A stretch of DNA of 13,085 nucleotides from Candidatus Methylomirabilia bacterium (GCA_041497895.1 JBGQHJ010000134.1:1-13085), one strand, 5' to 3'. Shown: positions 2-10,849, numbered from the stretch's first letter. Notes: generated from the letters alone by a model not told the origin. Program-made: numbers and translations.

Positions 2-943
2 GCCTTCATGGGCTACGCGCTCGCGCACACCTACGGGACGGTGCTGCTGCTGCGGGTGGCGCAGGGCCTGGGGGGCGGCCTCGTCTACGGCACCGCGCCC
101 GCGCTGGTGACCCTGTCGCTGCCGCGCGAGCGTCACGGCCGAGGGCTCGGGCTGATGAGCCTGGGCCTGGGCGTGGGGCTCGGGATCGGGCCGCTGGTGG
201 GCGGCGCGCTGCTGGACGGCTTCGGATGGTCGGCCGCCTTCGTCTTCCGCGCGCCGCTCTTCCTGGCGCTCGGGGTGCTGGCCCAGACCCGGTTCCGGCG
301 CCTGGGTGGCGCCGCGCCGGTCCGGCGCCGCGTCGCGCTCGCGGATCTCCTGCGGCTGCCCGTCCTGCGGGCCGCGCTGCTCGCGTTCCTGTCGAACCAC
401 GCGCAGTTCTCGGTGTGGCTGCTGATGCCGTTCTTCCTGGTGGGCCCCCTCGGTCTCACGCCCACCGTGGGCGGGCTCGTGTTCGCGCTCACCCCGCTCG
501 CCAACGCGCTGGTCGCTCCGCTCGGCGGCTGGGCCACCGACCGCGTCGGGCCGCGCGGGCCGCTCGCGTGCGGCCTCGCGCTCGAGGTGGCGGGCCTCCT
601 CACCATCGGGACGCTCTCCGGCGCTCCGTCGCTCGTCCTGGTCGGCGTCGCGATGGCGCTCGTGGGGCTGGGCGTCGGCCTGTTCCAGGTGCCGAACCTG
701 GCCCTGATGATGGCGTCCTTCCCGCCGGCGCAGCAGGGCGTGGCGGGCGGGCTCGCGTTCCTGAGCCGTACCCTCGGCAGCGCGGTGGGGGTGCAGGTGA
801 CCGCCGCGCTGTTCGACGCGCGCCTCGGCCGCGACGGCTTCCTGCCCGCGTTCCACGGCGCGTTCCTCGCCGCGGGGGCGGTGTGCGCGCTCGCGGTCGC
901 GCTCTCGCTGCTCCCCGGGGGCGCGCCTCCCCGGCCGCGATGA
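2..943 (+). CDS. MFS transporter (drug:H+ antiporter-like), 5'-truncated by the window edge
   Basis: Frame is open from the window start. Many hydrophobic helices, the MFS loop motif GWATDRVGPR, and the antiporter-like segments LRVAQGLGGG and GPLVGGALL. Ends at TGA 941-943. Confidence 0.9.
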   Translation, partial: AFMGYALAHTYGTVLLLRVAQGLGGGLVYGTAPALVTLSLPRERHGRGLGLMSLGLGVGLGIGPLVGGALLDGFGWSAAFVFRAPLFLALGVLAQTRFRRLGGAAPVRRRVALADLLRLPVLRAALLAFLSNHAQFSVWLLMPFFLVGPLGLTPTVGGLVFALTPLANALVAPLGGWATDRVGPRGPLACGLALEVAGLLTIGTLSGAPSLVLVGVAMALVGLGVGLFQVPNLALMMASFPPAQQGVAGGLAFLSRTLGSAVGVQVTAALFDARLGRDGFLPAFHGAFLAAGAVCALAVALSLLPGGAPPRPR

Positions 944-1162
944 CCGCGGAGGCCAGACCCTCTCGCTGGGCCATCCTCGCGGAACCTCTTCTGCTTCGTG
1001 GGCGGTCTCGTGGTGCCGGTGGTGCTCGGCTACGCCCTCGACCTGACCGGCAGCTTCCGCGCCGCCTTCACCGCCTGCGCGGTCTTCGAGGCGGTGGCCC
1101 TCGCCATCGCGTGCTTCACGCGGGAGAGCGGCGGCCGGGCCGCTACGGCTTCGGGATCCTGA
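940..1162 (+). pseudogene. Internally deleted remnant of a second MFS transporter
   Basis: ATG 940 overlaps the upstream stop (ATGA) and reads MTAEARPSRWAILA, an MFS-like N-terminus. From 983 a different frame reads NLFCFVGGLVVPVVLGYALDLTGSFRAAFTACAVFEAVALAIACFTRESGGRAATASGS* (TGA 1160-1162), resembling the last two MFS helices. The middle of the gene is absent. Confidence 0.7.
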
Positions 1163-1754
1163 GGGTCTTGCTGATCATCAGGCTGCCGGAGAGCAGGAAC
1201 AGCAGCGTGACCAGGTGCAGCTCGAGGCCGAGCGCGCGCACCGGGTAGAGCGTGCCGTAGTGGAAGGCCAGCATCAGCAGGCCCAGGGGGACGACGCTGG
1301 TCGGGATCGGCGTGCCCTCGAAGTAGGCGACCTTCCCGGTCTCACGGGAGAGGTCGGCGGCGGTGACGTTGTAGCGCGCGAGGCGGCTCACCCCGCACCC
1401 CACGAAGTACATCAGGACGAGCTGGTCGACCATGCGGTCGAGGCCGGCCGCGAACGCGATGCCGGCCGGGGCCACCCCGAAGGAGATCACGTCGGCCAGC
1501 GAGTCGAGCTCGCGTCCCATCGGCGAGCCGCCGTGCCGCCAGCGCGCGATGCGCCCGTCGAGCACGTCGAAGATCAGCGCGAGCGGGACCAGCAGCGCGG
1601 CGCCGTAGAGATACCGGCGGTCGCCGGTGGAGAGAAAGCGCATGGCCGCGAAGAGGGCCGCGACCCCGCAGAACCCGTTCGCGAACGTGAAGAGGTCCGC
1701 GAGGTGGAAGTTCCGCAGCATCGAGAAGTGACGGCGCGGGGCCGGCGCGGCCAC
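1143..1754 (-). CDS. pssA: CDP-diacylglycerol--serine O-phosphatidyltransferase (CDP-alcohol phosphotransferase family)
   Basis: Signature DVLDGRIARWRHGGSPMGRELDSLADVISFGVAPA, plus SRLARYN and FEGTPIP. GGAGG RBS upstream of GTG 1754. Confidence 0.9.
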   Translation of the reverse strand: MAAPAPRRHFSMLRNFHLADLFTFANGFCGVAALFAAMRFLSTGDRRYLYGAALLVPLALIFDVLDGRIARWRHGGSPMGRELDSLADVISFGVAPAGIAFAAGLDRMVDQLVLMYFVGCGVSRLARYNVTAADLSRETGKVAYFEGTPIPTSVVPLGLLMLAFHYGTLYPVRALGLELHLVTLLFLLSGSLMISKTLRIPKP

Positions 1755-1758
1755 GGGG

Positions 1759-2178
1759 CTATTCCTCCCGCGGGCGGCCCGCGGGCGCGCCCAGCACGTA
1801 GGCCGCGAACAGCTCGTCGAGGGCCCGCGCCGGATCGTCGGTGAGCCCGGCGTGGACCGGCGAGCTCTGGAGCACGTCCGAGCGCGGGGCGGTGAGCCAG
1901 TGGAAGCGCTCGGACGGCGGGGCGAGCGCGACCGGGCCCGCGGCGGGGTCGCCCGCGGCGACCGCGCAGCCCGACGCCAGGTAGCGGGCGAGCAGCTCGT
2001 GGTCGATGTCGGGCACCCGCGCGCGCAGGTCGTCCAGCGCGGCGAGGGTCCGCATCCCCAGGTAGCCCGCGGTGCGCGCGTGGAGCACCACCCCGACCGG
2101 CACGAAGGCCCCCAGGTGCACGTGGGGCACCGCGCGGAGCACCGCGAAGTCGTAGGCGATCGGGACCCCGGCGGTCAT
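1759..2178 (-). CDS. DUF3037-like protein, 139 aa (partner of the HipA-like kinase)
   Basis: True start is ATG 2178, overlapping the kinase stop (ATGA); the longer 270-aa ORF call is an N-terminal over-extension. Motifs YDFAVLRAVPHV..GVVL and ERFHWLTAPRSDVLQSSPVHAG match my recollection of DUF3037. Confidence 0.85.
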   Translation of the reverse strand: MTAGVPIAYDFAVLRAVPHVHLGAFVPVGVVLHARTAGYLGMRTLAALDDLRARVPDIDHELLARYLASGCAVAAGDPAAGPVALAPPSERFHWLTAPRSDVLQSSPVHAGLTDDPARALDELFAAYVLGAPAGRPREE

Positions 2179-3020
2179 CGGCGCGCGGAGAGGGGACGCG
2201 GCCGCTCGCGACGCGCCTGCTCTCGCGCGCGGGTCGCCTCGGCCACGAAGACGCGGGGCTCGCGCAGGCGCACCGCCAGGTATTCGAGGTAGCGGGCGCG
2301 GGCGGCCGCCGCGGAGGGAAAGTCGCGCCCGCCCACCGGATCGGTCAGGAGCTCGTCCGGCACCCGCGCGAGGATGCCGGCGAGCACCTCGGGGGAGAGT
2401 GCGCCGGCCAGGGGCGCGTCGACCGCACCCAGGTCGCCGGCCCGATCGAGCAGCACGTGGTCCCGGATGTGCGGGAAGGGGGTCCGGGCTCGCGCCTCGT
2501 CCACCGTGGCCCAGTCGTGATGCGCGTAGAGCGCTCCGCCGTGATCGATCAGCCACGGGCCGCGCCGCCACACGAGCAGGTTGGGATTACGATGGCTGCG
2601 GTCCGGGTTGGTGACGAGCGCGTCGAGCCACACGAGCCGCGTGGCGAAGTCGGTGGAGATCAGCTCCCCCGCGGCGGTGGCGTCGAAGTTGAACGCGCCG
2701 TCGAGGTAGCGCAGCCCCACGTTGACGCCCTGGCTGCCCCGCAGGATGTCCTGGATCTCCGGGTCGGGCTCGCTCCGCCCGAAGGCCGCGGAGAGGTCCA
2801 CGATCGCGAGCTCGGGCACCGGCAGGTCGAGCGCCTGCGCGAGCTGGCCCACCACCAGCTCGGCGATCAGGGCCTTCGGGCCCTGCCCCGCGCCCCGGAA
2901 CTTGACCACGAACAGTCCCCCGGTGGCGGTGTCGACGACCGCGGGCAGCGAGCCGCCCTCCCGCAGCGGCTGCACGTAGCGGGTCGCCGCGTGACGCGCG
3001 AGCGAGTCGGGTGTGGCCAT
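2175..3020 (-). CDS. HipA-like (PI3/4-kinase-fold) kinase, 281 aa
   Basis: Gly loop LREGGSLP, catalytic Lys in VVKFRGAGQG, helix-C Glu in IAELV, catalytic loop NPDRSHRNPNLL and Mg-binding LIDHG. Confidence 0.88.
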   Translation of the reverse strand: MATPDSLARHAATRYVQPLREGGSLPAVVDTATGGLFVVKFRGAGQGPKALIAELVVGQLAQALDLPVPELAIVDLSAAFGRSEPDPEIQDILRGSQGVNVGLRYLDGAFNFDATAAGELISTDFATRLVWLDALVTNPDRSHRNPNLLVWRRGPWLIDHGGALYAHHDWATVDEARARTPFPHIRDHVLLDRAGDLGAVDAPLAGALSPEVLAGILARVPDELLTDPVGGRDFPSAAAARARYLEYLAVRLREPRVFVAEATRAREQARRERPRPLSARR

Positions 3021-3072
3021 CCCCGCTCAGGACTGTACTACACGGGCCCGGGGCCGCGGTATGATGCGGGCC
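3021..3072. promoter_or_regulatory. Compact divergent promoter region (kinase / selenoprotein 1)
   Basis: On +, TATGAT at 3060-3065 lies 7 nt before ATG 3073, with no Shine-Dalgarno. On -, TACAGT at 3037-3032 lies 11 nt upstream of the kinase ATG (3020). No convincing -35 boxes. Confidence 0.55.
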
Positions 3073-4668
3073 ATGGAGATCCTCGACCCGGTCGGCTCGT
3101 CCGCCGCCGCCACGCGCACCGGGGCGCCGCGCCCGGCCTCGCTGCAGGGAGCGGTCATCGGCATCCTCGACAACTCCAAGCCCAACGCGCGCGTCCTGCT
3201 GGAAGGCGTGGCCCGCGCGCTCGCGGCCAAGCTCGGCGCCGCCGAGGTGCGCGTGTGGCGCAAGCCCGGTGCCTCCATCGGCGCGACGCGCGCCGTGCTC
3301 GACGAGATGGCGGCCCACTGCGGGGCCGTCCTGACCGCCTCCGCCGACTGAGGGTCGTGCACGTCGTGGAGTATCCACGACGCCACGGAGCTGGAAGGGC
3401 GGGGGATCGCGACCGTCGTCCTGGGCACGCACGAGTTCCGCCCGCTCGCCCTCGCCGAGGCCCGCGCCAAGGGACTGGCCTCGCTCGGGATCGTCACGGT
3501 GCCACACCCCATCGGCGGCGTGGCGGAGGACCTGGTCGCGAGCAAGGCGGCGGGCGCGGTCGACCAGGTGCTGGCCGCGCTCATCGGCACCGTGGCCGCG
3601 AGCGGAGTGGATGCCGGGGTGGCGGAAGGGCCGGCCCCGCGCCACCGCGCGCCCGACGATCTCCTCGATTTCCAGGCCTTCCTGATGGAGCGCGGCTGGG
3701 GCGACGGGCTGCCCGCCATTCCCGCCACCCCGGAGCGGGTGGCCGCGATGCTCGCGGGCACGCGGCGTGCGGCCGGCGACCCGGTCGCGGTGCTGCCCCC
3801 CCGGCTCGGCCGCGCCACCGTCGAGCGGGTGGCGGTGAACGCGGTGCTGGCGGGCGCGCTGCCCGAGCACCTGCCGGTGATCCTGGCCGTGGTCGAGGCG
3901 GTGAGCCAGCCCGCCTTCAACCTGCAGGCCATCCAGACCACCACCCATCCCTGCTCGCCGCTCGTCATCGTCAACGGCCCGCTCGCGGTCCGGCTCGGCG
4001 TCAACGGGGGCGGCAACGCGCTCGGGCAGGGCCATCGCGCCAACGCGGTCATCGGGCGCGCCCTGCGGCTCGTGCTGCAGAACGTGGGCGGGGCCCGGCC
4101 CGGTCACGAGGATCGCGCGACCCAGGGGCACCCGGGCAAGTACAGCTACTGCGTGGCCGAGAACGAGGCCGCGTCGCCCTGGGAGCCGCTCTCCGTCGAG
4201 CGGGGCTTCGGGCGCGAGGTCAGCACGGTGACGGTCTGCGGCTCGGAGGCCCCGCACAACATCAACGACCACGGCTCCTCCACTCCCGAGGGCATCCTCG
4301 CCACGGTGGCGGGCAGCGTGGCCACGGTGGGGAGCAACAACATCTACCTGGGCGGCGAGCCGCTGGTGATCCTGGGGCCCGAGCACGCGGCCACCGTGGC
4401 CGGCGGGGGCTGGACCAAGGCCCGGTTCAAGCGCGAGCTGTGGGAGCGCGCCCAGGTGCCGCTCTCGCGCTTCGATCCCTCCAACATCGAGCGCTTCGCG
4501 GTGATCCACCCCGCCGGTTTCAAGGACCGCCCGCCCGACACGCTGGCCCCGATCGCGCGCGAGTGGGCCGACATCATGATCGTGGTGGCGGGCGGGGCCG
4601 GAAAGCACTCGGTGTTCGTGCCCACCTTCGGGGCGACGCGCTCGGTCACCCAGCGCATCGAGGTGTGA
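3073..4668 (+). CDS. UGSC-type selenoprotein fused to a large GWxDGLP-motif domain; 531 aa, Sec93 encoded by TGA 3349-3351
   Basis: ORFs 3013..3351 and 3499..4668 share a frame and are separated only by TGA 3349-3351. Readthrough gives AVLTASAD-U-GSCTSWSIHDATELEGRGIATVVLGTHEF..VPHPIGG with no further stop until 4668. A hairpin follows the TGA. The start at 3073 (MEILDP) is supported by the paralog (FEILDP); ATGs at 3061 and 3064 are alternatives. Confidence 0.9.
3352..3388 (+). promoter_or_regulatory. Putative bacterial SECIS element 1
   Basis: Perfect 9-bp stem CGTCGTGGA-GTA-TCCACGACG at 3362-3382, starting 11 nt after the UGA, with the loop G at +20. Possible lower stem CGTG(3356-3359)/CACG(3384-3387). 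Confidence 0.8.
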
Positions 4669-5129
4669 CGGTGCGCGGCCGGGTCCTCACGCTGGTCGGG
4701 CTCCTGGTGCTGGCGGCCGCCGCACCGGCCGCCGCCGAGATGACCCCGACGCCCCCGCCCAGCCGCTTGCCGCCCGTGCCGTCGGCGGAAGGGGAGTACG
4801 CGCGCGGGGTCGCGGCCACGCGCGCGAAGGAGTGGAGCGTGGCCGCGGTCGCCTTCAGCCGGGCGGTGGAGATGAAGCCCGCGTACCCCGAGGCCTGGAA
4901 CGGGCTCGGGTTCGCGCTCCGCAACCAGGGCAAGTACGCCGAAGCGCTCAAGGCCTACGACGAGGCGCTGCGCCTGCGCCCGGACTACCCCGACGCGCTC
5001 GAGTACCTGGGCGAGGCCTACGTGAAGATGGGGCGGCTCGAGGACGCCCGTCGCGTGCTCGAGCGCCTCACCCCGCTCGACCGCGAGCGGGCCAAGGAGC
5101 TGTCCGAGGCTATCGCGCGGGGGAAGTGA
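4665..5129 (+). CDS. Exported tetratricopeptide-repeat protein, 154 aa
   Basis: GTG 4665 overlaps the upstream stop (GTGA). Signal peptide MTVRGRVLTLVGLLVLAAAAPAAA, a Pro-rich linker, then TPR units (AWNGLGFALRNQGKYAEALKAYDEALRLRPDY, ALEYLGEAYVKMGRLEDA). Confidence 0.85.
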   Translation: MTVRGRVLTLVGLLVLAAAAPAAAEMTPTPPPSRLPPVPSAEGEYARGVAATRAKEWSVAAVAFSRAVEMKPAYPEAWNGLGFALRNQGKYAEALKAYDEALRLRPDYPDALEYLGEAYVKMGRLEDARRVLERLTPLDRERAKELSEAIARGK

Positions 5130-6723
5130 CCGAGTAGAGCCGCTCGAAGTACTCCCGGACCATCCGGTCCGAGGAGAAGCGCTCCACCCCCATCCGGATC
5201 GACCCCCGCATCATCCGCGTCCAGCGCGCCCGGTCGGCGAAGGTGGGCAGGACCTCGGTCTCGAGCGTGTCGTAGAGCGCGCGCAGGTCGCGGGGGTCGG
5301 GGTCGCCGCTCACGGTGCCGTCGCCGATGGCCCACCCGGTCACGCCGTGCTCGCAGCCCTCCGGCCACCACCCGTCGAGCACCGAGAGGTTGAGGGTGCC
5401 GTTCATGGCCGCCTTCATGCCGGAGGTGCCGCTCGCCTCCATCGGGCGCCGCGGGGTGTTCAGCCAGACGTCGCAGCCGCGCGTGAGCACGCGGCCGAGC
5501 GCCATGTCGTAGTCCTCGAGGAAGGCCACGCTGTCGGGCCACTGGCGCAGCCCCTCGACGAGCCGCGCGATGACCGCCTTGCCCTCGTGATCGGCCGGAT
5601 GGGCCTTGCCCGCGAAGAGGAGCTGGACCCGGTGGCGCTTGATCAAGGTCGCGAAGCGGCCCGGGTCGCGCAGCAGCAGGTCCGGCCGCTTGTAGGTGGC
5701 GGCCCGCCGGGCGAACCCGATGGTGAGCGCGTCGGGATCGAGACGGGTGCCGGTCCGCGCGCGCACCTCGGCCAGGAGCTCGCCCTTGAGCGCGCGCTTG
5801 GCCGCGAGCAGCCGCTCGTCGCTGCCGTGCGCCGCCGCGATGCGCGGGTCCTGCCAGGTGCCCGTGTGCACCCCGTTGGTGATCGCGATGATCGGCGCCG
5901 CGTCCTCCACGTGGGCCCACATCGCGCGGGCGGTCTCGCCGTGCAGATGGGCCACCGCGTTGGCCGCGTGGGCGAGCCGCAGCCCCGCCACCGTCATGTT
6001 GAACGGATCGCCGCCGATCTCGGCCAGCTCGCTCGCCACCAGCTCGCAGCCCGCGCCGAGCCGCCGCAGCTCGGCGAGCGCGTGGACCTCGTTGCCGGCC
6101 GGCACCGGGGTGTGGGTGGTGAACACGATGGACCGGCGCGCCTTGCGCCACGCGTCGTGGAAGCGGCTGCCGGTCTCCATCCGGTCCGCGATCAGCTCGA
6201 TCCCGGCGAAGACCGCGTGCCCCTCGTTGAAGTGGTAGAGCTCGACCGGGAGGTGCAGCGCCCGGAGCGCGCGCACCCCCCCGATGCCGAGCAGCATCTC
6301 CTGGGCGACCCGGCAGTCCGGTCGCGGGTCGTAGAGGCGGCGGGTGATCCACAGATCGCGCGGGTCGGTGGGCTCGAGCAGGTAGAGGGGGGCGATGGCG
6401 TAGCGGCCCACGCGCCACACGCGGCACTCCACCTCGCGCGCCGCGACCCGCACGCGCACGCGCGCCCCGGTGTCGGAGAGCACGTCGGTCTTCTGCTGGG
6501 CCCACTCGTCGTAGGGATACCCGTCGGAGCCGATGTGCTGCGAGGTGTAGCCCTGGCCCCAGCGGAGCCCCACGCCCACGACCGGCATTCCGAGATCCCC
6601 GGCCGACTTCATGAAGTCGCCCGCGAGCACTCCCAGGCCGCCCGCGTACGAGTGGAACTCCTCGTGCAGCCCGTACTCCATCGAGAAGTACGCGACCAGC
6701 GGCAACCGACTCTCCGAGTTCAC
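5110..6723 (-). CDS. glgP: Alpha-glucan (glycogen/maltodextrin) phosphorylase, compact form
   Basis: AYFSMEYGL, YAGGLGVLAGD, NEGH, FTTHTPVPAG, FARRAATYKR, GKAHPAD, PLP-lysine motif EASGTSGMKAAMNG and LDGWW. The start is uncertain: GTG 6723 (just before the conserved core) or ATG 6786. Confidence 0.92.
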   Translation of the reverse strand: MNSESRLPLVAYFSMEYGLHEEFHSYAGGLGVLAGDFMKSAGDLGMPVVGVGLRWGQGYTSQHIGSDGYPYDEWAQQKTDVLSDTGARVRVRVAAREVECRVWRVGRYAIAPLYLLEPTDPRDLWITRRLYDPRPDCRVAQEMLLGIGGVRALRALHLPVELYHFNEGHAVFAGIELIADRMETGSRFHDAWRKARRSIVFTTHTPVPAGNEVHALAELRRLGAGCELVASELAEIGGDPFNMTVAGLRLAHAANAVAHLHGETARAMWAHVEDAAPIIAITNGVHTGTWQDPRIAAAHGSDERLLAAKRALKGELLAEVRARTGTRLDPDALTIGFARRAATYKRPDLLLRDPGRFATLIKRHRVQLLFAGKAHPADHEGKAVIARLVEGLRQWPDSVAFLEDYDMALGRVLTRGCDVWLNTPRRPMEASGTSGMKAAMNGTLNLSVLDGWWPEGCEHGVTGWAIGDGTVSGDPDPRDLRALYDTLETEVLPTFADRARWTRMMRGSIRMGVERFSSDRMVREYFERLYSVTSPAR

Positions 6724-6814
6724 GGCGCGAGTGCCCGTGTCGTGATCAGCCGCAGATAGGTGCTCACCGGATCGAGCATAGGCCATGCGTCCAGCAACGC
6801 AAAGCCCCGGGAGG

Positions 6815-6872
6815 CGCGGCGGTGGGGCGGGGGCGGCGGGGGCCCTCCCGCCGCCCCCACCCCACCGCCGCG
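6815..6872 (-). repeat. Long GC-rich inverted repeat (26-bp arms, 6-nt loop) directly after the ndh stop
   Basis: Arms 6815-6840 and 6847-6872 pair at 25 of 26 positions. The single C/A mismatch (6828/6859) becomes a G-U wobble in minus-strand RNA. No adjacent U-tract. Confidence 0.85.
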
Positions 6873-6879
6873 GACACCG

Positions 6880-8145
6880 TCAGCGTCGTGAGCGCCAGGG
6901 CCCGGTGATCAGGCGCGCGCCGCGCTGCCAGCTGATGTACGCCCACGCCCATTCGAACAGCACCAGGAAGCGGTTGCGGAAGCCGATCAGGAACGCGATG
7001 TGCACGAAGAGCCACGCGAGCCAGGCCGGCAGGCCGGAGAGGCGGAGGCGCCCGACCACCGCGACCGCGGCCGCGCGGCCGATGGTGGCCATGCTGCCGC
7101 GGTCGCGGTAGCGGAACGCGTCGGTCGGCTCTCCGGCCAGATGGTGCAGCACGTTGCGGGCCGTCGCGCGCCCCTGCTGCAAGGCGACCGGCGCCAGCCC
7201 GGGTAACGGTCGGCCGTCGGCCCCGGTGAAGGAGCACAGGTCGCCGATGGCGAAGGCCTCGGGGTGGCCGGGGATCGAGAGGTCGCGCTCGACCAGCACG
7301 CGCCCGGCCCGGTCGAGCGGCACGCCCAGCGTGCGGGTGAGCGGCGCGGCGGCGACGCCGGCCGCCCACAGCACGGTGCGCGCGCGGATCTGCTCCCCGC
7401 CCAGCCAGACCGCGTCGGGGGTTACCCGCGTGACGGTGGCGCCGGTGCGCACCTCGACCCCGATGCGCGCGAGCGCGGCGGCGGCGCGCGCGGGCAGGGG
7501 ATCGGGGAAGGCGGCCAGGACGCGGGGGCTGCCCTCGAGCAGCACGATCCGCGCCTTGGTGGGGTCGATCAGGCGGAAGTCGCGCGCGATGGTCTCGCGC
7601 GAGATCTCGGCCAGGGCCCCGGCCAGCTCCACCCCGGTCGGGCCGCCGCCGATCACCACCGAGGTGAGCAGCGCGCGCTGCTCGGCGCCGTCCTGCTCCC
7701 GCTCGGCCTCCTCGTAGGCCAGCAGCACGCGGCGCCGGATCTCGAGCGCGTCCTCCAGGGTCTTGAGGCTCGGGGCCAGCGGCTCCCAGTCGTCGTGGCC
7801 GAAGTAGGAGTGGCCGGCGCCCGCGGCGAGCACGAGCGCGTCGTAGGGCATCGCGCCCTCGTCGAGGACGAGGCGTCGGCCGGCCAGGTCCACCGACACG
7901 ACCTCGGCCAGGAACACGGTGACGTTCGGGGCGCGGCGCAGGATGGAGCGAAGCGGGGTCGCGATGTCGGACGGGTTGAGGGCCGCGGTGGCCACCTGGT
8001 AGAGCAGGGGCTGGAAGAGATGATGGTTGCGCCGGTCGAGGAGGGTGACGCGGACCGGCCGGTTCGCGAGCGCGCGGGCCGCGTAGAGCCCGCCGAATCC
8101 GCCGCCCACGATGACCACGTGCGGATGCCCGTCGCGGTCGCTCAC
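6880..8145 (-). CDS. ndh: Type II NADH:quinone oxidoreductase (FAD-dependent), about 421 aa
   Basis: Two Rossmann motifs (VVIVGGGFGG, VVIGGGPTGVELAG), HLFQPLLYQVAT, WAAGV, AIGD, APVALQQG, FRYRDRGSMATIGR and C-terminal AWLAWLFVH. Start placed at GTG 8145, just before the first Rossmann strand. Confidence 0.92.
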   Translation of the reverse strand: MSDRDGHPHVVIVGGGFGGLYAARALANRPVRVTLLDRRNHHLFQPLLYQVATAALNPSDIATPLRSILRRAPNVTVFLAEVVSVDLAGRRLVLDEGAMPYDALVLAAGAGHSYFGHDDWEPLAPSLKTLEDALEIRRRVLLAYEEAEREQDGAEQRALLTSVVIGGGPTGVELAGALAEISRETIARDFRLIDPTKARIVLLEGSPRVLAAFPDPLPARAAAALARIGVEVRTGATVTRVTPDAVWLGGEQIRARTVLWAAGVAAAPLTRTLGVPLDRAGRVLVERDLSIPGHPEAFAIGDLCSFTGADGRPLPGLAPVALQQGRATARNVLHHLAGEPTDAFRYRDRGSMATIGRAAAVAVVGRLRLSGLPAWLAWLFVHIAFLIGFRNRFLVLFEWAWAYISWQRGARLITGPWRSRR

Positions 8146-8151
8146 GGACTC

Positions 8152-8180
8152 ATCTTCCGGGGGACCTCGGACGGTGTCAA
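8152..8180 (-). promoter_or_regulatory. Possible divergent promoter for ndh
   Basis: TTGACA on the minus strand (8180-8175), a 17-nt spacer, then a weak -10 GAAGAT (8157-8152) ending 6 nt before GTG 8145. Confidence 0.4.
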
Positions 8181-8202
8181 CCGAGCGCGAGCCGCGGCCG
8201 GC

Positions 8203-8247
8203 TTGACAGGACGCGGGCTTCGCCCTAGGGTGAGCGCACACAGGAGG
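8203..8247 (+). promoter_or_regulatory. Sigma70-type promoter and RBS of the selenoprotein-2 operon
   Basis: TTGACA 8203-8208, a 17-nt spacer, TAGGGT 8226-8231, AGGAGG 8242-8247 and ATG 8256. Confidence 0.75.
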
Positions 8248-8255
8248 AGTCGCTC

Positions 8256-9302
8256 ATGACCGCGAGGATCTCGTCACAGCGCTACGCCGTCGAGGGTTTC
8301 CAGGAGGCGCTCGACCTCTGCTACAGCCGGGGATGGACCGACGGCCTGCCGGTGGTGCCGCCGACCGAGCCGGCGGTGCGGGCCATGCTCGACGCGGTCG
8401 CGCTCGAGCCCGACGCGCAGGTCGCCTTCATCACCAACCGACAGGTGGCGATCTCCGCCGAGAAGGTCGCGATCAACGCGGTGATGGCGGGCTGCCGGCC
8501 CGAGTACATGCCGGTGGTGGTGGCCGCGATCGAGGGCATCGCCGATCCCCGGTGGGGCTATCACGGGCCGGCCACGTCCACCGGGAGCGCGGCGGTCCTC
8601 ACGATCGTCAACGGGCCCGTCGCCAAGCGGCTCGACTTCAACTCGGGCGACAATCTCTTCGCGCCGGGCTGGCGGGCGAACGCCACCGTCGGGCGCGCGG
8701 TGCGGCTGGTGATGCGCAACGTGATCGGGACGATGCCCGGACGGCTCGACCGCGGGACTTTCGGCCATCCGGGCCGCTACACGTACGTGATGGCCGAGAA
8801 CGAGGCGGAGAGCCCGTGGACACCGCTGCACGTCGAGCGGGCCGGCTGCCGGCCCACCGACAGCGCGGTCACGGTCATGGCCGCGCTGGCCCCGATCCAG
8901 TTCTACAACCAGCTCTCGAGCACCGCGGCCGGCGTGCTCGGCACGCTCTGCGACACGATGCGGTATCCCGGGCAGATCGGACAGCCCAACTACTGCGTGG
9001 TGCTGGCCGGCGAGCACATGCGCACGATCGCGGCCGACGGCTGGTCCAAGGCCGACATCCGCAAGTTCATCTTCGAGAACTCCACGAACACGGTGGCGCA
9101 CTTCAAGCGGACCGCGCGGATGCCCGGCGGGGTGAAGCCGGAGGACGAGGCCACGAGCCGGCCGATCGTGCAGTCGCCGGACGACATCCTGGTGGTGGCG
9201 GCGGGGGGGCGCGCCGGCTCCTTCTCGTGCTTCATCCCGGGCTGGGCGAGCCGCACCTCGTCGGAAGCAGTGACGGTGGTCATCAAAGAGAGGAGCGCAT
9301 GA
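8256..9302 (+). CDS. Stand-alone GWxDGLP-motif protein (UGSC-selenoprotein partner), 348 aa, function unknown
   Basis: Strong RBS. Colinear paralog of the C-terminal domain of 3073..4668: GWTDGLPVVPPT/GWGDGLPAIPAT, EKVAINAVMAG/ERVAVNAVLAG, IVNGP, RANATVGRA/RANAVIGRA, GHPGRYTY/GHPGKYSY, AENE..SPW.PL.VER, GWSKA/GWTKA, DILVVAAGG/DIMIVVAGG. Confidence 0.9.
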   Translation: MTARISSQRYAVEGFQEALDLCYSRGWTDGLPVVPPTEPAVRAMLDAVALEPDAQVAFITNRQVAISAEKVAINAVMAGCRPEYMPVVVAAIEGIADPRWGYHGPATSTGSAAVLTIVNGPVAKRLDFNSGDNLFAPGWRANATVGRAVRLVMRNVIGTMPGRLDRGTFGHPGRYTYVMAENEAESPWTPLHVERAGCRPTDSAVTVMAALAPIQFYNQLSSTAAGVLGTLCDTMRYPGQIGQPNYCVVLAGEHMRTIAADGWSKADIRKFIFENSTNTVAHFKRTARMPGGVKPEDEATSRPIVQSPDDILVVAAGGRAGSFSCFIPGWASRTSSEAVTVVIKERSA

Positions 9303-9841
9303 TGGCGGGATTCGAGATCCTCGACCCCACGGTCGAGCCGCGGCGACAGCCGCTCACGTACGTGCCGCGCCCGGATTCGCTCAAGGGCAAGCGCATCGGA
9401 CTGGTGGAGAACACCAAGTTCAACTCGGACAAGCTGCTGCAGAAGATCGGGGTCATCCTCAAGACCGAGTACGGCGCCGCCGAGGCGCGGATGTGGCGCA
9501 AGCACAACTCGAGCGTGCCGGCCCACAAGGAGATCATCGACGACGCCAAGCAGACCGTGGACGTCGTCGTCGCCGGCATCGGCGACTGAGGGTCCTGCTC
9601 GTCGGGCAGTGTGCTCGACGGAATCCTGTTCGAGAAGATCGGCGTCCCCGCCGCGTCCATCGTGACCGACGTCTTCGAGGCCACCGGGCACGCCATGGCC
9701 CAGTCGTGGGGCGTCCCGGAGTACAGGTTCCTCTCGGTGCCGCATCCGATCGCGAACCTCACCGACGCCGAGCTGGACGCGCGGGCCCGCACGATCGCCC
9801 CCGAGGTCGTGCGACTGCTGCTGAAGGGCCAGGAAGGCTAG
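9299..9841 (+). CDS. Stand-alone UGSC-type selenoprotein; 180 aa, Sec97 encoded by TGA 9587-9589
   Basis: ATG 9299 (ATGA overlap, AGGAG RBS; ATG 9302 is an alternative) reads MMAGFEILDP..VVVAGIGD-U-GSCSSGSVLDGILFEKIGVPAASIVTDVF..VPHPIAN..KGQEG* and is in frame with ORF 9611..9841. It is colinear with locus 1 on both sides of the TGA. Confidence 0.9.
9590..9626 (+). promoter_or_regulatory. Putative bacterial SECIS element 2
   Basis: 9-bp stem CGTCGGGCA-GTG-TGCTCGACG at 9600-9620 (one G-U pair), starting 11 nt after the UGA with the loop G at +20, the same geometry as element 1. Confidence 0.8.
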
Positions 9842-9871: not shown

Positions 9872-10849
9872 ATGCCAGACGACTCCGCCTACCGTCCGCC
9901 GTTCTGGTACCGGGGCCGGCACCTCCAGACGCTGTGGGGGCCGCTGGTGCGCCACTGGCGGCGGCCCCCGCTGCGGCGCGAGCGGCTCGAGACGCCCGAC
10001 GGCGACTTCGTCGATCTCGACTGGCTCGCCGGCGCCCCCGAGTCCGGCCCCGTGGTCCTGATCCTCCACGGCCTCGAGGGATCGTCGAATTCTCACTACG
10101 CGCGCGGCCTGCTGCGCGGAGCGGGGCGGCTCGGCTGGCGCCCCGCCGTGCTCCACTTCCGCTCGTGTAGCGGCGAGGTGAACCGGCTCCCGCGGCTGTA
10201 CCACTCGGGCGACACCCGCGATCTCGAGTGGGTGCTCGAGCGGCTGCAGAAGCGCGAGGCCGATCCCCGGATCGGCCTGATCGGGATCTCGCTGGGCGGC
10301 AACGTGGTGCTGAAGTGGCTCGGGGAGCAGGGCGAGGCCGCGCCCGCCGCGGTGGTGGGCTCGGTCGCGATCTCGACCCCGTTCGACCTGGCCGCGTGCG
10401 CGGAGGTGCTGGACCGCGGCTTCAACCGCGCGGTCTACACCGGGAGCTTCCTGCGCACCATGAAGGCCAAGGTGCGGGCCAAGACCCATCTCTACGACGG
10501 CCGGATCGACGTGCCCGCGGTGCTGCGCTCGCGCACCTTCGCGGAGTACGACCGGTGGTTCACCGCGCCGCTGAACGGCTTCGCCGACGAGCGCGACTAC
10601 TGGAGCCGGGCGAGCTGCGGGCCCTTTCTCGAGCGCGTCCGGCGCCCCACGTTGCTGATCAACGCGACCAACGATCCGTTCCTGCCCGGGGAGCGCCTTC
10701 CCGCGGCGGCGGTCGCGCGATCGCACTGGCTCGAGGCGGCCTTCGTGGAGCAGGGCGGGCACGTGGGATTTCTGGACGGTCCGCTCGGGGGCTCGTCGTG
10801 GGCGGAGCGGCGCGCCCTCGCGTTCCTCCGGCGCCTTCTGCTACCATGA
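9872..10849 (+). CDS. YheT-family alpha/beta hydrolase (putative esterase), 325 aa
   Basis: GRHLQTLW, TPDGDFVDLDW, LHGLEGSS, FRSCSGE, YHSGDT, nucleophile elbow GISLGG, NDPF (Asp) and GGHVGF (His). Confidence 0.9.
   Translation: MPDDSAYRPPFWYRGRHLQTLWGPLVRHWRRPPLRRERLETPDGDFVDLDWLAGAPESGPVVLILHGLEGSSNSHYARGLLRGAGRLGWRPAVLHFRSCSGEVNRLPRLYHSGDTRDLEWVLERLQKREADPRIGLIGISLGGNVVLKWLGEQGEAAPAAVVGSVAISTPFDLAACAEVLDRGFNRAVYTGSFLRTMKAKVRAKTHLYDGRIDVPAVLRSRTFAEYDRWFTAPLNGFADERDYWSRASCGPFLERVRRPTLLINATNDPFLPGERLPAAAVARSHWLEAAFVEQGGHVGFLDGPLGGSSWAERRALAFLRRLLLP

Follow-up and report, generated by a model that had tools for sequence, protein, structure and literature searches.

The selenoprotein family UGSC, and its fusion to a domain called 'Unknown_1', are the closest described relatives of a two-domain system that occurs twice in the DNA analysed here, 13,085 nucleotides from a Candidatus Methylomirabilia bacterium (GCA_041497895.1 JBGQHJ010000134.1:1-13085; this whole stretch is hereafter the window). 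In 2007 UGSC was named, in a passage of PMC1976440, as a selenoprotein of 'unknown function'. Zhang and Gladyshev (2008, PMC2398784) placed it among the major selenoprotein families of the Global Ocean Sampling (GOS) data (255 selenoprotein sequences, 37 samples; Table 2). The UGSC passages of that paper suggest a thioredoxin-like fold for UGSC, show the 'UGSC/Unknown_1' fusion in Fig. S1A and call both functions unclear; stand-alone Unknown_1 homologues are given for Sulfitobacter, Hyphomonas, Mycobacterium leprae, Sphingomonas and Methanothermobacter (PMC2398784). As far as their passages on UGSC go, a 2022 review only lists the family (PMC9312934), and a 2026 review counts it among the selenoproteins whose functions are largely uncharacterised (PMC13188914). 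No functional study of UGSC was found in the full-text literature, in which subscription journals are not covered.

Both domains of the published fusion are present in the window. The Unknown_1 alignment printed for the GOS fusion ('AVNGVMAGCRPEYMP...') is the large domain found here, and one copy in the window's own genome (contig C114) matches the GOS type nearly word for word. The small domain belongs to the same family as the GOS UGSC, now catalogued as PF24696 and NF041046. The original prediction had regarded the system as undescribed; this cannot be maintained, since the 2008 paper (PMC2398784, Fig. S1A) had already reported both the UGSC family and the fusion. The UGSC passages of that paper, however, report the fusion only, whereas split genes are seen here too, and they suggest a thioredoxin-like UGSC, whereas the model described below is a five-stranded beta-alpha structure of flavodoxin-like type. 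Split operons in both orders, near-obligate co-occurrence of the two domains, co-diversifying expansion of paralogs and a link to GrdB are absent from the UGSC passages of PMC2398784, PMC13188914, PMC9312934 and PMC1976440.

A second described system resembles the UGSC pair in its layout. Protein B of the glycine, sarcosine and betaine reductases consists of the selenoprotein GrdB and the pyruvoyl proprotein GrdE, the corresponding proteins of D-proline reductase being PrdB and PrdA, and the Grd systems need thiol-based reduction. Like protein B, the UGSC system has two parts, a selenoprotein and a larger second protein, for which we propose a substrate-binding role, and GrdB shares with UGSC the motifs U-G-[ST]-C, ExxG[IV]P and HP. 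The likeness has limits. GrdB has roughly 320 N-terminal residues (two thirds of the protein) that the 180-aa UGSC does not have, the partner of UGSC is unlike GrdE and PrdA, and true GrdB/GrdE-like genes are present as separate systems in related genomes. The literature naming both UGSC and GrdB, in the passages concerned, also treats them as separate families.

The first copy in the window is a fused gene on the plus strand (3061..4668), of about 536 aa from ATG 3061 and ending at TGA 4666-4668, in which a UGSC domain, a linker and the large domain follow one another. The frame 3013..4668 is open when TGA is read as selenocysteine (Sec), and the translation contains one internal TGA, at 3349-3351. 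The start is likely ATG 3061 or 3064, because 'MMRAMEILDP' resembles 'MMAGFEILDP' of the free UGSC gene described below; the next ATG, 3073, is the start used in the original prediction and a third candidate. The UGSC domain (3076..3585, plus strand) matched PF24696 with 162.4 bits in the genome scan, with one TGA inside the match. The N-terminal 190 residues alone gave 166 bits with PF24696 (cut-off 25) and 127.7 bits with NF041046 (cut-off 125). An Ala/Gly/Pro-rich linker (3586..3678, plus strand; residues 192-222) lies outside both the UGSC match and the BLASTP match that defines the large domain of 'Unknown_1' type (3679..4665, plus strand; motif GWGDGLP). At the position of the near-invariant Cys, this large domain has Ala (LAGA).

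The second copy is split and has the opposite order. A stand-alone gene for the large partner (8256..9302, plus strand; 348 aa, motifs GWTDGLP and NAVMAGC, Shine-Dalgarno AGGAGG at 8243-8248) is followed by a free UGSC selenoprotein gene (9299..9841, plus strand; 180 aa, 199.5 bits with PF24696 and 145.5 bits with NF041046), so that both UGSC genes of the window score above the curated cut-offs of the two families. At 9299-9302 the sequence ATGA joins the stop of the large gene to the start of the free UGSC gene. The Shine-Dalgarno sequence of the latter, GAGAGGAG, lies directly upstream, good sequences preceding 8256 and 9299 alike, and the translational coupling that had been claimed thus agrees with the sequence. 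The G+C content at third codon positions is about 0.95 (0.945-0.948) for all three genes of the system (0.947 for the fused gene), in a genome of 74% G+C. The fused protein and the 8256..9302 product, compared with BLASTP, have 133 identities in 333 positions (40%; E 2e-68), with fused residues 223-551 (nt 3679-4665) aligned to residues 21-341 of the 348-aa protein. The original prediction was therefore right both in calling the stand-alone protein a paralog of the C-terminal part of the fused one and in its boundary of about 3660-4668. The UGSC part of the fused gene and the 9299..9841 product share 57 of 175 residues (33%; E 6e-30, BLASTP).

The Sec codons were examined in both genes. The motif D-U-G-S-C, which is that of UGSC, is formed with an in-frame TGA at 3349..3351 (plus strand) in the fused gene and at 9587..9589 (plus strand; U97) in the free gene, and in the same columns the Cys-form homologues of Burkholderiales and other lineages read D-C-G-S-C. 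Genes for tRNA-SeC, selB (359.9 bits; cut-off 242) and selD (333.3 bits) are present in the genome. Hairpins resembling a Sec insertion sequence follow both codons on the plus strand. That of the fused gene (3355..3388; 9-bp inner stem at 3362-3382, GUA loop) begins 13 nt past the UGA and has an energy of -22.0 kcal/mol with a z-score of -1.5 against mononucleotide shuffles (ViennaRNA). That of the free gene (9589..9627; 10-bp inner stem at 9599-9621, GUG loop; -17.7 kcal/mol, z -0.5, ViennaRNA) is weak on its own, and its position and loop are common to the paralogs. A hairpin 13-15 nt past the UGA with a GUN triloop is found in 7 of the genome's 9 UGSC copies, the two in the window among them, and the stem sequences vary among the paralogs that share this position and triloop. 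Since energies with z-scores of -2.1 to +1.6 are ordinary for this G+C content, the hairpins alone are weak evidence. Both a downstream stem-loop, weak as its z-scores are, and the Sec machinery, as expected of a bacterial selenoprotein gene, are thus found. Judged from motif, homologues and machinery together, the in-frame TGAs of the UGSC genes very probably encode Sec. The top selD match of the genome (C142:378-1313, minus strand) itself carries an in-frame TGA, and SelD is probably a selenoprotein in this organism.

The linkage of the two domains was analysed in the window's own genome (G000), a metagenome-assembled genome (MAG) of 5.1 Mb in 280 contigs with a completeness of 86.8% and a contamination of 7.2%. 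It contains 13 matches to the large domain and 9 to UGSC, each of the latter with one TGA, and all nine UGSC copies adjoin a large domain or are fused to one. Fused genes with UGSC first are found at three loci (the window copy on C134, C114 and C193), separate genes in the same order at two (C50 and C54), and separate genes with the large domain first at four (the window copy on C134, C144, C22 and C250). Trees of the two domains give the same clades, namely (C114a, C193), (C134b, C144), (C22, C250) and (C50, C54, C134a), and the pairwise identity matrices of the two are correlated (r = 0.91, a value reached by none of 5000 permutations; r = 0.74, reached by 1 of 5000, once the near-duplicate C250 locus is left out). 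Given the parallel trees and the correlated matrices, we conclude that the pairs duplicated and diverged as units. The fused window copy falls in the clade of the split pairs with UGSC first and the split window pair in a different clade; the two are therefore old paralogs rather than products of a recent rearrangement. The C22 (33353-37923) and C250 (1-4134) loci are nearly identical, with 91% amino-acid identity for the large domain and 96% for UGSC and the same neighbours (DUF3047, VWA-CoxE and a ChsH2-like OB protein), and probably represent a strain duplication in the bin.

The same association was observed in the phylum sample of 151 genomes, which includes G000 as well as three genomes flagged unpublished (G029, G058 and G101) and in which kin are not independent. 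The large domain was searched with profile A1 at E of at most 1e-10, the best 13 scored candidates per genome being kept. UGSC was found in 124 genomes and the large domain in 123; 123 had both, one had UGSC alone and 27 had neither. In the one UGSC-only genome, which has a completeness of 76%, UGSC lies at the end of a contig. The tallies of the two domains per taxonomic family are identical save in one family (2/3 vs 1/3), and one whole family, of 18 genomes, has neither domain.

In other lineages, the large-domain profile was searched against one genome per species, and the best 79 loci of at least 614 matching stretches were analysed; these loci are those most similar to the query and so do not sample the family at random. 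Represented among them are Methylomirabilota, Burkholderiales, Dehalococcoidia and other Chloroflexota, Binatia, Acidobacteriota, Poribacteria, SAR324, a Rhodospirillaceae MAG and the archaeon Natrialba. A hidden Markov model built from our own UGSC alignment detected a same-strand UGSC at 64 of the 79 loci. Among the 66 full-length UGSC matches at these loci, the U position is a TGA in 63 and Cys in one, and two have no motif. The large domain precedes a separate UGSC gene in 52 cases and follows one in 10; three are fusions with UGSC first, and in one case the large domain and UGSC follow in a single frame. Tandem arrays were also seen, with three successive large domains on one Chloroflexota contig and three consecutive UGSC-large units on another (L054, L079).

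An exhaustive search gave 5073 representative clusters (50% identity) of the large-domain family at E up to 1e-3. A Pfam scan was made of 53 of 150 listed representatives, picked as longer than a single domain. Nineteen of the 53 start with the C-terminal half of UGSC, and would be fusions cut at the Sec codon by gene callers. Eight carry the whole UGSC domain N-terminal to the large domain, and four end in the N-terminal half of UGSC, as truncated fusions of the reverse order would. Three start with AhpC-TSA/Redoxin and two carry FeThRed_B, the catalytic beta chain of ferredoxin:thioredoxin reductase (one of them also among the 19). The 18 others without a family include 6 or 7 tandem doubles of about 710 aa; double proteins of this size include P0130, P0142, P0146, P0152, P0205 and P0211. 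All four arrangements are therefore known, UGSC before the large domain or after it and, in each order, fused or split. The idea of the original prediction that the fused gene (3061..4668) and the split pair of opposite order (8256..9841) are forms of one system is borne out by these arrangements and by the co-occurrence across genomes, more strongly than the window alone could show. By this comparative evidence the two domains are functionally linked.

The free UGSC protein was modelled with AlphaFold2 (AF2) with a mean predicted local distance difference test (pLDDT) score of 92.4. The model has five beta-alpha units, with Sec97 between the strand 89-95 and the helix 98-113. Its structure neighbours are generic alpha/beta domains (flavodoxin-like, CheY-like, Rossmann-like and periplasmic-binding-protein domains); no thioredoxin is among those listed, an absence that does not exclude a thioredoxin fold. 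On this model, UGSC appears to be a flavodoxin-like alpha/beta domain with U-x-x-C between a beta-strand and the next helix.

A relation to GrdB was found by profile comparison. In the own genome, a GrdB-like piece (C29:15614-16027, minus strand, the same as L111:1381-2094, minus strand) reads 'VVLVPS-U-PVC' with an in-frame TGA, matches PF07355 with 24.4 bits and adjoins an open reading frame (ORF) whose N-terminus is HdrB/CCG-like; the piece is perhaps a further small Sec module of GrdB type. This single short fragment gave no significant match to UGSC (hhalign 4%) and was set aside; a signal was obtained only with a 15-sequence alignment. Because the fragment resembled the local pattern of UGSC, 15 full-length GrdB-like proteins (PF07355, about 383-475 bits) were collected from genomes of the same family and read through the Sec codon. 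Comparison of the UGSC alignment with these gave a probability of 89.6% (E 1.9e-6, 94 columns) between UGSC 76-177 and GrdB-like 327-425, with Sec aligned on Sec; the control with the reversed alignment gave 0.3%. The pattern '...T-U-G-T-[CS]...E-R-x-G-I-P-T...H-P-L-G' of the GrdB-like proteins stands against 'G-D-U-G-S-C...E-K-x-G-V-P-A...H-P-I-A' of UGSC. Cys falls on Cys in the GrdB-like sequences with UGTC (others have UGTS), ExxG[IV]P on ExxGIP and HP on HP. These alignments suggest remote homology of UGSC 76-177 to the Sec-bearing C-terminal region of GrdB, that is, of one region and not family membership. The role of a Sec-bearing redox subunit, which had been proposed from the window alone, gains support from this match and from the Redoxin and FeThRed_B fusions of the relatives. 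Many genomes of the same family (L112-L124 and L139-L156) contain several full-length GrdB-like and GrdE/PrdA-like genes, with up to 7 PF07355 and up to 6 PF09338 matches, PF07355 being matched in 28 of 41; multiple systems resembling glycine or betaine reductase are unexpected in soil Methylomirabilota.

The large domain, of about 340 aa, is marked by the motifs GW[TG]DGLP, N-A-V-M-A-G-C, R-A-N...G-R and E-N-E. D29, P32, A72, G79, G120, G146, R147 and G317 are invariant among 71 diverse members, and C80, N74, R140, N142, N155, E181 and W188 are kept in at least 90% of them; Cys80 is present in 11 of the 13 own copies. The 8256 product had no match in Pfam or NCBIfam up to E 10. Nor did the PDB yield a meaningful sequence match, whether single proteins or profiles served as query; with the large-domain profile there was none at all. 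Matches in the protein atlas are unnamed clusters and one that was automatically named 'Thioredoxin family protein'. The AF2 model is of high quality (pLDDT 95.6; predicted template-modelling score 0.94). Foldseek and VIA-align found only weak, mutually unrelated neighbours, the top ones including cyclic amide hydrolases of the 'Toblerone' fold, and barely covered residues 1-133. The folds compared were the alpha part of class I (Fe-S) fumarate hydratase, the YjgF/chorismate-mutase-like fold and 'Toblerone' (PDB 7xky, 6uqn, 5t13, 1fnk). With so little coverage of residues 1-133, we make no claim of a new fold. Two segments in which the original prediction had placed candidate pocket positions do vary, with a column entropy at the 62nd and 88th percentile (average and above average), but the location of a pocket there is not borne out; the first surrounds a conserved [ST]-T pair.

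These facts suggest that UGSC and the large domain make up a two-part, thiol-recycled, Sec-dependent reductase with substrate-specific paralogs, both window loci being paralogous copies. We put the probability of this reading at about 0.55. The comparative evidence is consistent with physical binding of the two parts, and the paralogs may act on different small molecules. In the reaction that we propose, the large domain would bind and position the substrate, and the selenolate of UGSC would attack it there and cleave it reductively. A selenenylsulfide would then form with Cys100 of U-G-S-C or with Cys80 of the large domain, and a donor of thioredoxin type, in this genome as elsewhere, would reduce it again. 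Some relatives may carry the donor within the same chain, in the form of a Redoxin or ferredoxin:thioredoxin-reductase domain.

Several observations weigh against this reading. The large domain occurs without UGSC in 4 of the 13 own copies (C87, C34, C231 and the second C114 copy) and without a same-strand UGSC at 15 of the 79 loci. The 15 comprise six Poribacteria with a shortened large domain, three loci at contig ends, five others and one with UGSC on the other strand only. In the six (L045, L048, L049, L050, L052 and L107) the large domain is missing the profile positions from about 280 to 310 and the nearest 3 kb are free of UGSC, and these may form a Sec-independent branch of the family. 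Of the earlier view that the two domains are subunits of one enzyme, the linkage holds, by the adjacency in all nine cases and the parallel trees. Ala replaces Cys80 in two own copies, both fusions and one of them that of the window. No gene for thioredoxin or thioredoxin reductase lies directly beside any copy in the own genome, and the 143 ORFs that flank the 79 foreign loci contained none either. The match to GrdB is confined to 94 C-terminal columns, its probability of 89.6% stays below 95%, and the free UGSC protein has no PF07355 (GRDB) match even at E 10. The large domain gave no signal against the GrdB-like proteins (hhalign 5.5%) or against 15 PF09338 proteins (GrdE/PrdA-like; hhalign 0.1%) and, having no Pfam match at E 10, does not belong to the GrdE/PrdA family. 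Since the large domain is unlike GrdB and GrdE/PrdA, the analogy to protein B is only half carried by homology.

Another interpretation would see in the pair a device for protein-thiol or peroxide redox chemistry, such as a peroxiredoxin-like protein or a disulfide relay, with the large domain as scaffold or sensor. The N-terminal AhpC-TSA/Redoxin domain of three relatives would fit it, as would U-x-x-C at the N-terminus of a helix, an arrangement of many thiol oxidoreductases, and the UGSC passages of PMC2398784 regard the family as a generic redox protein. Such fusions, however, are just 3 of the 53 long representatives, and up to 13 diverged paralogs per genome (among the best 13 candidates counted) co-diversify with their partners. 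Substrate diversity fits the catabolic enzymes encoded nearby better than a single housekeeping redox task does, and the conserved polar residues D29, N74, R140, N142, R147 and E181 look like those of an active site. We therefore consider a thiol or peroxide device unlikely, though it deserves to be kept in mind. Somewhat more doubtful still is a distant relation of the large domain to iron-sulfur hydro-lyases of the class I fumarate hydratase type, in which Sec97, Cys100 and Cys80 would ligate a metal or Fe-S cluster at the interface. This would imply hydration, dehydration or metal handling and not reduction. That type of enzyme was among the folds compared, and the structure neighbours of the large domain were weak and mutually unrelated.

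A further variant keeps the analogy to protein B in function and gives it up in descent. The large domain would be an analogue, and not a homologue, of the pyruvoyl proproteins GrdE and PrdA, self-cleaving at Gly79-Cys80 ('M-A-G|C') to form a pyruvoyl group; amines would be bound as Schiff bases and their C-N bond cleaved by the UGSC selenol. We regard this as a long shot. If it were true, a large and overlooked family of Stickland-type reductive deaminases would exist in aerobic bacteria of soil and ocean, each paralog serving one amine, and the frequently neighbouring amidases, amidohydrolases, hydantoinases and peptidases would supply the substrates. Finally, the association of the domains could be incidental and the TGAs true stops, assembly errors or pseudogene lesions. 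The completeness and contamination of the MAG and the weak z-scores of the hairpins leave some room for such an artefact. The TGA, however, occupies one and the same place in the motif in all 9 own copies and in 63 of 66 others, the coding signal and the Pfam homology run on past it on both sides, tRNA-SeC, selB and selD are present, and Cys-form homologues have Cys exactly at the TGA position. An artefact is thus extremely improbable, and a Sec-dependent two-part reductase remains the reading that we prefer.

The surroundings of the copies are varied. Neighbours in the own genome are short-chain dehydrogenases, luciferase-like monooxygenases, an amidohydrolase, an amidase with hydantoinase A/B, a PhyH dioxygenase, CoA ligases, alpha/beta hydrolases, an ArsC-like phosphatase and SBP56. 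At the C50 locus (L027:4853-10527), a short-chain dehydrogenase and a low-molecular-weight phosphatase/ArsC-like gene precede the UGSC-large pair, which is followed by genes for SBP56 (selenium-binding protein / methanethiol-oxidase family) and SCO1/SenC. At the 79 foreign loci the commonest neighbours are luciferase-like monooxygenases (5), NHL-repeat proteins (4), Amidohydro_2 (3), CoA-transferase III (2) and short-chain dehydrogenases; ORF calls in these high-GC flanks are crude, and many of those without a family are probably wrong frames from simple ORF picking. No fixed third gene, whether electron donor or transporter, was found around the 13 own copies or the 79 foreign loci.

In the window, the split pair is followed by a gene for a PRK10985-like alpha/beta hydrolase (9872..10849, plus strand; NF008218 246.1 bits, under the cut-off of 267). 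A homologue with 58-65% identity also stands directly after UGSC at four other loci (L033, L034, L035 and L036), and an operon of large gene, UGSC and hydrolase is likely, judging by this conserved order, for the orthologue group of the window's split pair only. Upstream of the pair, and divergent from 8256, lies an NDH-2-like flavoprotein gene (6880-8241, minus strand), whose top NCBIfam match is the oxidoreductase TIGR03169 'N-terminal to SelD' (95 bits, far under the cut-off of 310). Its true start is probably near 8130, because the annotated start overlaps the Shine-Dalgarno sequence of 8256. The flavoprotein was considered as a dedicated reductase and dropped, its upstream position being kept only in the closest locus, L032. 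The remaining genes of the window encode a major facilitator superfamily transporter (2-943, plus strand), a phosphatidylserine synthase (1143-1754, minus strand), a DUF3037 protein (1759 to about 2170, minus strand) and a HipA_2-like kinase (PF20613; 2175-3020, minus strand), the last two as a two-gene unit, kinase then DUF3037 (1759-3020, minus strand), divergent from the fused selenoprotein gene. The fused gene is followed by a small tetratricopeptide repeat (TPR) protein with a signal-like N-terminus (to 5129, plus strand) and an alpha-glucan phosphorylase (5110-6786, minus strand), and the hydrolase gene by a TPR protein (to 12147, plus strand) and an M20 peptidase (from about 12144, plus strand).

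The finding bears on both the annotation and the biology of these bacteria. Gene callers that stop at the Sec codon leave many 'hypothetical proteins' of 410-470 aa. Soil Methylomirabilota have up to 13 co-evolving pairs, counted among the best 13 candidates per genome. The UGSC family is almost always accompanied by one uncatalogued partner domain, which gives an experimental handle on an old question.

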